Part shown: positions 11,742 through 15,259 of the stretch, in pieces
Layout of the letters: each line of letters opens with the position of its first letter
Numbering within the stretch: the first letter of the stretch is position 1
Source of the DNA: Candidatus Heimdallarchaeota archaeon
GTDB lineage: Archaea > Asgardarchaeota > Heimdallarchaeia > Heimdallarchaeales > Heimdallarchaeaceae
Reading direction: 5' to 3'
Assembly (NCBI GenBank): GCA_030668875.1
Contig: DAOVER010000001.1
Coordinates: 30,001-62,000 of the forward strand
Length of the DNA: 32,000 nucleotides
Program-made: the position numbers and the translations under genes
Notes under the pieces: generated by a model
Told to the model about the DNA's origin: nothing
Database searches by the model: none
The model's input: only the letters and a program-made list of their open reading frames with translations

Positions 11742-12719
11742 TTACATTAAAGCTTCCCAGACAGTTGGAGCAGAATCTGGGTAAAAATTCTTTATATCTT
11801 TTATTTCAATTGCAATTTGGCCAGTTTTTCCATGAATAGAGTACGGCATCCTACTAACTCTATTGGTGTCCATGGTTACTTTTCTATCAATTCTTGGATA
11901 ACGGCGTAAAATAATCTCACTAGAGAGTTTCTTTCTAACAACTGAATCATTGGGGATGAGAATGTTATATTTTGTGTGATCAAAATCATCACTATTTTGA
12001 ACTTGTTTTATAATATCTTTTGCCTTATTTACAGATATGCCAAATTCATGTAGTTTTTTAGGAGTTATTTTTTCAAGATACGATTTGGCAGTAAGAGCAT
12101 AAATCCTATTTCTCAAAGGTTTAGATTCATTAGGAATTTCATCTATAGATTGAGATCGTTTTTCATCATGTATAAATGTAAGATAATCTAGAATAGCAAC
12201 TCTTTGATTTTTATCAAATGTTTGGATAAGTGGATCCCTTACCCATCCATGTACTCCTCTTCTTCCAGAAAAAATCCAGATGATATCGTTAAAACCAAAA
12301 TCTTCTCGCATTGTTTGATCAATAAAGACTGCTGCATCTTGAACAAGAGACCAGCATTCTTTACAGTATTGAGCACCTTGACAACCACAGGTTCTCACTA
12401 AATCATATTCATCAATATCAATATCATAGATAAATTCCCGATAGTTCCACTTTAGTTTCTGTATTGGATGTTCTTTTGATGGAGGAGTATCAAAAACTGC
12501 ACCGACATAGGCATCCTTTACAGAATTATTAACCATAAACTCAAGCATTTTTTCTGTGTTCTGAAAAGAAATATTTCTCACAAATCTATTATTACCAACA
12601 ACAAACCCAAATTCTCTTTTTTTAAAATTAGAGAGACCTATAAATGACATGAATTTCTCAACTGGGAATTTTTTTTCGTAATATGCAGAAATTACTTCAG
12701 GTGTCAACTTCTTTTCCAT
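11742..12719 (-). CDS. priS: DNA primase small (catalytic) subunit, eukaryote-like
   Basis: REFGF, catalytic DIDID, Zn motif CGC..CKECW, FSGRRGVHGWV, RIDRKVT, RMPYSIHGKTG. Confidence 0.95.
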   Translation of the reverse strand: MEKKLTPEVISAYYEKKFPVEKFMSFIGLSNFKKREFGFVVGNNRFVRNISFQNTEKMLEFMVNNSVKDAYVGAVFDTPPSKEHPIQKLKWNYREFIYDIDIDEYDLVRTCGCQGAQYCKECWSLVQDAAVFIDQTMREDFGFNDIIWIFSGRRGVHGWVRDPLIQTFDKNQRVAILDYLTFIHDEKRSQSIDEIPNESKPLRNRIYALTAKSYLEKITPKKLHEFGISVNKAKDIIKQVQNSDDFDHTKYNILIPNDSVVRKKLSSEIILRRYPRIDRKVTMDTNRVSRMPYSIHGKTGQIAIEIKDIKNFYPDSAPTVWEALM

Positions 12720-12721
12720 AT

Positions 12722-14089
12722 CTAGGCCTTCTTTTGCTTATCACTTGTTTTTGAATTGTCTGTTGTAGTTTCCTTCTTCTTATAGAAGCGTTTGTATGCA
12801 TCTTGGGAATATTTTAACATGTGATTTATTTGAAATCCTCTAACTTTCCAACCAGTTAATAATGTGAAATACCTTGCGCATGCTGATTGATATCTTTGAT
12901 TTATGATTAATCTGGAAATTTCCTCTATCGCTTTATCTACAACTTCACTATTTCTTTTAGACATCTTTACTTTGATGTCTTCGTTAATGTCTTCGAGTTT
13001 TTTGTGAGCCCAATAACAGTAATATCCATTGATACAAGTTTTGCAGCTTGGAGGGTCGTAGTCAACTCCACCTCCAGTTTTACCATAAATGTGATTGATT
13101 TGGTATCCTACACGTTGAACAAATTCGTCATAAGACATACCCACATTATCAATTGAATTACTATACCAAAATCGTAATTGGTCATCTACACTCATACCTA
13201 TTCTTTTCAAAAAAGTTCCTAGTTGCCAGTTCTCTACATGGGATAGATGACCTTTAGCTTGTAGTGTGGCAACCAATTCTTGAATGCATGGGGGAAATAT
13301 ATCTGGTTTGGTGTGGATGGCATCACCATCAGCAAAACCTAGGTTCTTGAAATCCCCTGAATATCTTGTTGATCTCGCAATTTTTGATATTCTATCTTTG
13401 ATTGGTTTAACAGTTACTTCTAAATCCTCATCCTTTTCGATTAAAACTTTAGATTTTTCTATAACATCTTTTAGTTGTTTCTCAAACTCTCTTTTTACTG
13501 CAAGTCGGATATCAGCTAGTCTAACAATCCCCCAACCTTTGTAGAGCAAAGCTTTCTTTGCTCCAACGACCTTAGGGATTTTATGAAAACGGACAGCTAA
13601 TCTTGTATCTAGAACCTTAACCTTCGATCCATATTTTTGTTTTGATTTTGCATACTTACCAGATCTGTAAACTGAGTCTGCTAGATTGAATTCGCGGTTA
13701 AGATTTATTTTGAAAAGTTCATTAATTTCTTCTGTAGTCTTTACGTTATCTTGTCCATATAAATCTTTTAGAACTTGGATTCTTTCCTCAGATTTATTAC
13801 TACTGATAAAACGGAATTCGAAAAGATCTCCTTCAACTTCTACTAGCCAAGAACTTAATCTTGGATCTGTTGATACAGCAAGTCTAAGAAGAAGATGACC
13901 TCCTATCTCTTCTGATATGGTTGAAACCCAATCATCGTCAGACATCCAGGAAGGTCTATTGATAATCCAATCATCTTCTGCTAAAAAACGTTCTAATCTT
14001 GTTTCTGCGAACTTGTACCAACTAGCGACATTTATAGTAATGTCTCCTGGGTCTTTTAAGACATACCAATCTGGAAGTTCAACAGACAT
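12722..14089 (-). CDS. priL: DNA primase large subunit with Fe-S domain, eukaryote-like
   Basis: HLLLRLA...W.VEVE.DLF.FRF; FPPC, HLSH, LGTFLKRIG, HIYG..G...Y.PPSC..C, YCYW, YQSACARYF; its stop is 2 nt before the priS ATG. Confidence 0.92.
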   Translation of the reverse strand: MSVELPDWYVLKDPGDITINVASWYKFAETRLERFLAEDDWIINRPSWMSDDDWVSTISEEIGGHLLLRLAVSTDPRLSSWLVEVEGDLFEFRFISSNKSEERIQVLKDLYGQDNVKTTEEINELFKINLNREFNLADSVYRSGKYAKSKQKYGSKVKVLDTRLAVRFHKIPKVVGAKKALLYKGWGIVRLADIRLAVKREFEKQLKDVIEKSKVLIEKDEDLEVTVKPIKDRISKIARSTRYSGDFKNLGFADGDAIHTKPDIFPPCIQELVATLQAKGHLSHVENWQLGTFLKRIGMSVDDQLRFWYSNSIDNVGMSYDEFVQRVGYQINHIYGKTGGGVDYDPPSCKTCINGYYCYWAHKKLEDINEDIKVKMSKRNSEVVDKAIEEISRLIINQRYQSACARYFTLLTGWKVRGFQINHMLKYSQDAYKRFYKKKETTTDNSKTSDKQKKA

Positions 14090-14116
14090 GAGATATTCCT
14101 TTCTCTAATCTCTTAG

Positions 14117-15259
14117 TTAGTCTGACTTATTAAAAAATTGTGCTAAAGTTTTTTGATGAGCATCTATCTTTTTAAGATTTGATATTTTTACTCCAACTAA
14201 TCTTATACTCGAAGGATCTTTTGAAGAATATTCTCCTAATAGGGTCTTTACGGCCTCTCTGACTTGCCTTTCAGATGTTTCATGACAGGTAAGAGAATGA
14301 GCTCGTGTAGCTGTTTCAAAATCATTGAACCTTATTTTTAGAGATATAGTTCTAAAGTGCATTTTCTTGTCTTTAGCTTTTGAGACTATGGTTTTTATTG
14401 CAGAATCGATATGAACCCAAATATCCAACCATGAACTATAATTATTGAAGAAGGTACGCTCTTCGCTTATCGATTTCCTTTCGTGACCGTTGAATTTTTC
14501 ATCAGTTTTTTCTGTATTATAACCATTGACAAGTTTCCATGTCTTCAAACCATATTTTCCGAACTTTTGAAATACAAGCTGATAGAATAAATTAGCTAAA
14601 TCACCGCATGTTTCTATAGAATTGTTCTGAAATACTTGGTAACTTTTTTTACCTATTCCAGGAATAGCTGTTATTTTTAATGGTGCAAGAAAATCACTTA
14701 TCTCTAATGGTTTTACTACAGTTAATCCATCAGGTTTATCCACCTCACTGGCAATTTTAGCTAATATTTTTGTTGGTGCAACACCTATTGAGCAGGTTAA
14801 ATGTTCACTCGCAAGGATATCGTCTTTTAATTCAGTTGCTAGCCTTCTAGCTTCTTCATAGTCACTAACAACATTGGTGACGTCAAGATATGCTTCATCA
14901 TTTCCTGCTATCTTCATAATTGGAGAATAATCGGATAAGATTTTCATTATATTCTCTGATACTTTAGAGTAGAGCTTGAAAGTTCCTCTGACAATTGTAA
15001 CGTGAGGACATAATTTCACTGCTTGAGAAATTGGCATACCTGAATGAATACCATACTCTCTGGCTTCGTAAGAGCAAGTGCTTACTACCCCTCTCTTTGT
15101 TTGAGGATTACCTCCTACAATTAGAGGAATACCAGAAAGTTTTGGATTTTCACGTATTTCAACATTAGCAAAAAAAGCATCCAAATCCATATACAAGATG
15201 ATTTTATCAAATGTTTGCTCCTTCTCTGAGAAATATGTCATTTGATTGACTAATGTCAT
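14117..15259 (-). CDS. dinB: Y-family DNA polymerase IV (DinB/Dpo4) with C-terminal PIP box
   Basis: YMDLDAFFANVE, CSYEAREYGIHSGMP, DEAYLD, CSIGVAPTKILAKIAS..KPDG, IPGIG, little finger RKSISEERTF, IRLVGV; C-terminal QKTLAQFF. Confidence 0.95.
   Translation of the reverse strand: MTLVNQMTYFSEKEQTFDKIILYMDLDAFFANVEIRENPKLSGIPLIVGGNPQTKRGVVSTCSYEAREYGIHSGMPISQAVKLCPHVTIVRGTFKLYSKVSENIMKILSDYSPIMKIAGNDEAYLDVTNVVSDYEEARRLATELKDDILASEHLTCSIGVAPTKILAKIASEVDKPDGLTVVKPLEISDFLAPLKITAIPGIGKKSYQVFQNNSIETCGDLANLFYQLVFQKFGKYGLKTWKLVNGYNTEKTDEKFNGHERKSISEERTFFNNYSSWLDIWVHIDSAIKTIVSKAKDKKMHFRTISLKIRFNDFETATRAHSLTCHETSERQVREAVKTLLGEYSSKDPSSIRLVGVKISNLKKIDAHQKTLAQFFNKSD

Follow-up and report, generated by a model that had tools for sequence, protein, structure and literature searches.

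Why should the gene of a translesion DNA polymerase stand directly ahead of the genes of a DNA primase? The question is raised by a stretch of 32,000 nucleotides (nt), hereafter the window, from a Candidatus Heimdallarchaeota archaeon of the Heimdallarchaeaceae (assembly GCA_030668875.1, contig DAOVER010000001.1, positions 30,001 to 62,000), in which dinB, priL and priS follow one another on the minus strand. The dinB-priL-priS order is a real gene string and is conserved in one Heimdall-group Asgard family. On balance, we favor the explanation that it is a family-specific string of ordinary, intact genes that leads to co-expression and involves no dedicated DinB-primase complex. The individual components and the priL-priS pair have already been described, the linkage of dinB to them looks like a lineage-specific gene order, and no dinB-primase operon was found in the published literature searched. 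The genes and their two associated motifs are, in window coordinates:

14117-15259, minus strand: dinB, Y-family DinB/Pol IV-type translesion DNA polymerase, 380 amino acids (aa).
12722-14089, minus strand: priL, primase large subunit of apparent Heimdall-group (eukaryote-like) type, 455 aa.
11742-12719, minus strand: priS, primase catalytic subunit, 325 aa, starting 2 nt past the priL stop.
14132-14155, minus strand: PCNA-interacting peptide (PIP) box QKTLAQFF, DinB residues 369-376 of 380, five codons ahead of the stop.
14097-14100, minus strand: AGGA, a Shine-Dalgarno (SD)-like motif, 7 nt ahead of the priL ATG.

An earlier note on this DNA had reported three same-strand open reading frames (ORFs) with an AGGA motif ahead of the second and a PIP box at the DinB C-terminus, and these elements are indeed present: the ORF coordinates leave 27 nt between dinB and priL and 2 nt between priL and priS, and QKTLAQFF is encoded at 14155-14132. 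DinB, PriL and PriS are each single-copy in this 92%-complete genome, so the primase is the only one of the cell, with no spare or mobile-element copy. The best explanation for the priL-priS pair is that the two genes are translationally coupled and form a long-standing, tight unit.

By its sequence, DinB is a member of the Y-family DinB/Pol IV subfamily, with core, little finger, carboxylates and clamp motif all present. Pfam profiles matched the IMS core (PF00817, 2.6e-48, 164 bits for a cut-off of 23.2) and the little finger (PF11799, IMS_C, 5.7e-19, 69 bits for a cut-off of 20.7), and the matches among solved structures were bacterial Pol IV (2.5e-62 over residues 20-369), Dpo4/Dbh (~1e-45) and Pol kappa (~3e-38). 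Residues D25, D27, D121 and E122, which we take to be the catalytic carboxylates in view of what is established for Pol IV and Dpo4, do not vary among 40 Asgard DinB sequences (motifs YMDLDAFFA and NDEAYLD), and the alignment of these 40 sequences contains no family-specific extra domain in DinB. The pattern Q-x-x-[LI]-x-x-[FYW]-[FLI] is kept at the C-terminal end across the sampled Asgard families. Since the PIP box is common to DinB throughout the sampled phylum, DinB is predicted to be recruited by PCNA through the usual route. DinB of the window and, by alignment, of its sampled Asgard relatives is nearer in sequence to bacterial Pol IV than to crenarchaeal Dpo4 or eukaryotic Pol kappa. 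The T run at 14126-14137 differs in length by a single base from that of locus L016, which encodes a 94% identical DinB: T6 or T7 at this place toggles the C-terminus between ...QFFNKSD and ...QFF. Both forms are found across the genus, so the four-residue tail past the PIP box appears dispensable.

The primase subunits are likewise intact. PriL matches PF04104 (DNA_primase_lrg, 1.4e-44, 153 bits) and PriS matches PF01896 (DNA_primase_S, 6.3e-33, 115 bits), both far over the Pfam cut-offs. In the PDB, PriL matches eukaryotic PRIM2-type chains only (1.2e-26), the alignment to the human-type PRIM2 spanning residues 58-441, and the best solved relative of PriS is eukaryotic PRIM1 (8.9e-39, versus 7e-17 for archaeal PriS). 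The Fe-S cysteines C268, C349, C358 and C404 of PriL are invariant in the alignment, as are, in PriS, the archaeo-eukaryotic primase (AEP) motifs I (DxD, D99/D101), II (SGxRGxH, G152-R154-G155-H157) and III (hD.., D278), the zinc knuckle C111/C113/C119/C122 and Y71-x-G73. In sequence, the two subunits agree with the eukaryote-like Asgard primases that were described as the Heimdall group in 2025; the priS and priL genes of these adjoin in most Heimdall lineages (PMC12770985, PMC12680538). The PriS of several congeners (L006:6613-7821, L008:9506-10672, L011:6555-7742 and L012:5025-6290) contains an inserted segment of some 65-80 residues that includes a CxxC...CxxC pair, as in LQCQNCKSKF...IKCKYCSGE, and that looks like an extra zinc ribbon within the helical domain; the PriS of the window (325 aa, 11742-12719) is without it.

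How far does the linkage extend? The coordinates of the three gene families were compared in 40 relatives, and the loci were then annotated by blastp and with hidden Markov models (HMMs) of the primase subunits. We designate the window's family f1, its genus g1, and the other genera of this family g10, g11, g12 and g13. Of the 23 other species of the genus, about 20 have dinB, priL and priS collinear on a single contig; the rest are broken by contig ends and compatible with this order. The trio was found in four of the five family genera (g1, g11, g12 and g13, with two complete genomes among g11-g13), and in g10 the contig stops inside dinB, which is again compatible. Outside the family, PriL or PriS was encoded within about 6-7 kb of dinB at none of 44 loci from other Asgard families (10 from the same order, 34 from other orders or classes of the phylum; blastp and HMM), and the dinB linkage was absent from five priL loci of other Asgard families. 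The coordinate comparison always placed dinB on another contig in the remaining families of the order. The synteny by which the earlier note had proposed to judge the string is therefore kept within the family and breaks down in the sister families, where dinB lies elsewhere. The linkage is a trait of one family and not of the lineages that share the primase type, and no recurrence in distant or independent lineages was seen in the one phylum (Asgard) sampled.

Within the genus, the whole block is collinear, with protein identities of 55-95%, from two upstream genes through AlaRS, GNAT, PriS, PriL, DinB, a gene for a phospholipase D-like (PLD) protein, a 176-aa ORF and XPD to the next gene. 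The conservation of dinB-priL is thus not exceptional within the genus, because most of the surrounding 17 kb is equally kept. Across genera, the flanks vary while the trio stays: g12 lacks both the PLD gene and the 176-aa ORF, and g13 lacks GNAT and has AlaRS turned. Retention of the trio despite these changing flanks gives weak support to selection on the string.

The neighboring alanyl-tRNA synthetase gene (AlaRS) offers a clue to its origin. In two outgroup families of the same order, AlaRS is the divergent neighbor of priL-priS (L021:4306-9685 and L022:4013-9400), and in the window's family it lies beyond the priS end and faces it. The outgroup arrangement suggests, as the simplest history, that the region was rearranged in the ancestor of the family, probably with priL-priS becoming inverted with respect to the AlaRS gene, and that dinB thereby came to lie directly upstream. 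Such an inversion would have taken priL off its old promoter region and put it behind dinB. Genus g3 of this order has priS and priL on opposite strands, with priS 1-3 kb upstream.

How would the string be transcribed? Three elements are relevant:

15275-15288, minus strand: TTTTTATATTAAAA, TATA box of the putative dinB promoter, starting 29 nt ahead of the ATG, a leaderless-type spacing.
15292-15305, minus strand: oligo-T runs (T7, C, T6) just past the stop of the upstream gene, which encodes a PLD protein with a lamin-tail domain (LTD).
14125-14138, minus strand: ATTTTTTAATAAGT, a T6 run with a TATA-like sequence inside the Phe-Phe-Asn-Lys codons of dinB, 36-49 nt ahead of the priL ATG.

For comparison, signals were collected genome-wide around 1263 "first" genes and 480 closely spaced "internal" genes. 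Among the first genes, those that lack an SD have a TATA-like peak at -35 to -26 from the ATG, which suggests that many mRNAs are leaderless. SD-like motifs at -15 to -6 precede 55% of the closely spaced internal genes versus 26% of the first genes; over the whole genome, most closely spaced internal genes have motifs of the GGAG/AGGA type. In the 60 nt behind the gene, 45% of terminal genes have a run of five or more T, versus 12% of internal ones. dinB fits the leaderless class because TTTTTATATTAAAA starts 29 nt from its ATG, and this box is nearly invariant in genera g1 and g12. The oligo-T runs at 15292-15305 are likely the terminator of the PLD-LTD gene, and the region is T-rich in all members of the genus. 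Ahead of priL, AAAGGAA is conserved 7-10 nt from the ATG in g1, and no SD is present in g12 and g13; outgroup priL genes, inspected by eye, have a TATA-like sequence about 30 nt upstream and no SD. In 19 family members, the dinB-priL gap measures 26-45 nt; priL and priS either overlap or have 2-3 nt between them, the exception being a called gap of 16 nt in g12. The three genes therefore share a strand and have short, conserved gaps, as expected of an operon, and from this arrangement co-transcription of dinB with priL-priS is plausible.

The earlier note had seen a TATA-like box upstream of dinB only. The box TTTTTATATTAAAA is there, but a promoter matrix trained on the genome's own leaderless genes (consensus AA.TTTWWAWA) scores ATTTTTTAATAAGT near priL at 6.8 (site start -49 from the priL ATG), against 6.0 for dinB (site start -32) and 6.8 for the PLD gene. 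A site that scores 6.5 or more at -60 to -40 precedes 14.5% of SD-bearing first genes and 2.7% of SD-bearing internal genes. The operon proposed in that note consequently stands as a layout, with its 26-45 nt gaps, internal-type SD and conserved dinB promoter, and is put in doubt as a single transcription unit by the candidate promoter of the primase genes.

The segment ATTTTTTAATAAGT comprises the two Phe codons with which the PIP box ends and the codons that follow, in place of which T7 species have a stop codon. Phe-Phe is written TTTTTT at the end of dinB in eight of nine deep family lineages (g12 has TTCTTT), while third-position identity between these nine lineages is only about 0.5. Genome-wide, by comparison, TTTTTT encodes 20% of Phe-Phe pairs, though TTT makes up 63% of Phe codons. 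Sense-strand runs of six or more T are depleted, and such a run lies in the last 33 nt of only 1.25% of genes. Among outgroup dinB genes that end in Phe-Phe, one of five uses TTTTTT. Moreover, the last eight conserved codons form the top window for synonymous conservation in dinB (0.82 versus a mean of 0.67). These features point to a nucleotide-level function of the T-rich segment, as putative TATA box of priL-priS, as partial terminator of dinB, or as both. We tentatively propose, as a reading with nearly even prospects, that the two Phe codons in the PIP box also supply the essential primase operon with its TATA box. The primase genes may thus have a promoter of their own and be expressed on their own.

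Under the explanation that we favor, transcription most likely starts at the conserved leaderless-type promoter of dinB and reads on into priL-priS. The T-rich sequence in the PIP-box Phe-Phe codons would probably be a second promoter and may also stop part of the dinB transcripts; either way, expression of the primase would not depend on dinB. The outcome would be co-expression of two DNA-synthesis functions, with DinB recruited by PCNA and primers passed to PolD or PolB. Several points weigh against this explanation. The T-run could persist merely from the amino acids of the PIP box together with AT-rich codon bias, and the statistics that speak against codon bias come from about nine lineages and five outgroup genes. 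Both the read-through and the internal start are deduced from sequence. The outgroup sample consists of 44 loci from a single phylum. Finally, the retention of the trio in all family genera that could be checked could reflect selection for linkage, which would favor a functional tie.

The alternative that survives best, although we consider it rather doubtful, is that two independent transcription units simply lie side by side. Transcripts of dinB would end in the T6/T7 run at its stop codon, the same element would serve as TATA box for priL-priS, which would have their own mRNA with a short leader that carries the SD, and the adjacency would be a neutral by-product of genome compaction after the rearrangement. 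The promoter-like site ahead of priL, which equals those of dinB and the PLD gene in strength and is of a kind rare (2.7%) before closely spaced internal genes, agrees with this, as does the frequency of oligo-T downstream of terminal genes (45%). So does the persistence of TTTTTT in eight of nine family lineages in a genome that disfavors it for Phe-Phe, is depleted in runs of six or more T and rarely places them at gene ends. The same-strand PLD neighbor is also a secreted, membrane-anchored protein with a promoter of its own; as the PLD-LTD gene encodes a protein of this signal-peptide-like, anchored kind, same-strand packing in the block does not imply shared function. However, T6 is a weak terminator in archaea, and some read-through is to be expected. 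In a leader as short as implied (about 15-17 nt), the SD would come within a few nucleotides of the 5' end; g12 and g13 have no SD, and the Phe-Phe codons of g12 are TTCTTT.

Much less probable is the idea of the earlier note that DinB and PriSL constitute a functional, possibly physical, module for repriming and lesion bypass, or that DinB stands in for Pol alpha by elongating the very short primers that the Heimdall-type primase makes, the linkage being selected for co-expression. Equally improbable in our judgment is the specific version in which DinB takes over and extends short PriSL primers at damaged templates, as a two-protein analogue of PrimPol-style repriming, and selection welds dinB to priL-priS. 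Archaeal PriSL can itself bypass lesions, and this established ability would suit such a module. The same can be said of the trio, kept in four of five family genera (the fifth being compatible) despite changes in the flanks, and of dinB, which is present in 29 of 29 other family genomes searched, among the matches listed. The Heimdall-group primase, in addition, makes very short primers and prefers dNTPs (PMC12770985). Against the module, the linkage occurs in one family only, and outgroups of the same order and class with similar PriL and PriS (their primase grouping is that of PMC12770985) have dinB elsewhere. DinB harbors a general PCNA-binding PIP box and no domain special to the family, most of the 17-kb neighborhood is equally conserved in the genus, and the Asgard primase papers make no mention of DinB (PMC12770985, PMC12680538). 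With a linkage confined to one family and a PIP box general to the sampled Asgard DinB proteins, the repriming module found no support.

Nor did the substitution of DinB for Pol alpha. To our knowledge, all archaea lack Pol alpha, and for this reason its absence cannot explain a linkage restricted to one family. The genome encodes PolD (DP2) and two family-B polymerase (PolB) genes, and in a two-hybrid assay Heimdallarchaeal PriL binds the C-terminal domain of PolD DP2 (PMC12680538); because PolD, two PolB genes and this PriL-PolD link are available, a role of DinB as a surrogate of Pol alpha is not needed. The DP2 match of the genome (G000:C95:61164-61973, minus strand) lies inside an open frame of 1730 aa that may hold an intein or a fused domain. 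A typical DP2 seems shorter than this.

The wider proposal that XPD, the 176-aa ORF, PLD, DinB, PriL and PriS form one repair operon was rejected, since the PLD-LTD protein is membrane-anchored and its gene has its own promoter-like site and oligo-T behind it. The 675-aa product of this gene (15318-17345, minus strand) starts with a signal-peptide-like segment, contains a lamin-tail domain besides two PLD-like domains, and finishes in a hydrophobic anchor whose last residues are RRK; it is predicted to be a surface-anchored nuclease or phospholipase. The promoter-like site lies 32 nt ahead of its ATG, and the gene is missing at this position in g12. On the other side of the string, a further element was found:

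11712-11732, no strand assigned: 8-bp hairpin GACTTCTG...CAGAAGTC in the convergent gap between priS and the GNAT gene (RNAfold, -11.6 kcal/mol).

Hairpins of different stem sequence occur at the same place in most congeners. In the window, the hairpin is probably the terminator of the GNAT gene, because a T5 run comes after it on the plus strand. A scan of positions 10000-21000 against Rfam at gathering thresholds gave no match.

A functional linkage would point to a direct hand-off between a eukaryote-like primase and a translesion polymerase in the archaea most closely related to eukaryotes, and it would bear on how priming and primer extension were organized before Pol alpha. The evidence instead favors a lineage-specific gene order, and its practical value is modest. 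The dinB-priL-priS order can serve as a synapomorphy of one Heimdallarchaeal family. It also provides a compact case of how an essential operon acquires a promoter, perhaps within the clamp-binding codons of its upstream neighbor, once a rearrangement has moved it.

Comparison with known systems underlines the ordinary nature of the components. DinB shares with the members of the DinB/Pol IV subfamily (E. coli Pol IV, Sulfolobus Dpo4/Dbh and Pol kappa) the palm-fingers core, the little finger, the Asp/Asp-Glu residues and a C-terminal clamp-binding motif; it differs by an N-terminal extension of about 20 residues, and what is unusual is its genomic place ahead of primase genes. The closest parallel for the primase is Gerd_ePriS/ePriL of Candidatus Gerdarchaeota B18_G1 (PMC12770985; also PMC12680538), which likewise has adjoining priL and priS genes, a PriL bigger than PriS, and a Y-x-G motif upstream of PriS motif I. 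The Fe-S cysteines of PriL are 81/9/46 residues apart in the window and 82/9/45 in Gerd_ePriL, which we regard as the same spacing, and the best solved relatives are eukaryotic PRIM1 and PRIM2 for the subunits of the Heimdall group and of the window alike. The difference lies upstream: the papers on the Heimdall primase mention no dinB ahead of priL (PMC12770985, PMC12680538), whereas the window's family has it 26-45 nt away.

PrimPol-type enzymes and the modules of mobile elements, such as AgaPP with its helicase (PMC11724360), provide a conceptual parallel in combining priming with lesion-tolerant synthesis. In these systems, however, one AEP protein does both or binds a helicase encoded next to it, whereas the window encodes two separate canonical enzymes; dinB appears in that study only as a Cas9 target in E. 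coli (PMC11724360). Finally, the priS-GINS operon of Haloferax volcanii (PMC7776575) likewise places a primase gene on the same strand as a replication or repair gene, with co-expression presumed. In the window, by contrast, the primase genes are paired with that of a translesion polymerase, an arrangement restricted to a single Asgard family.

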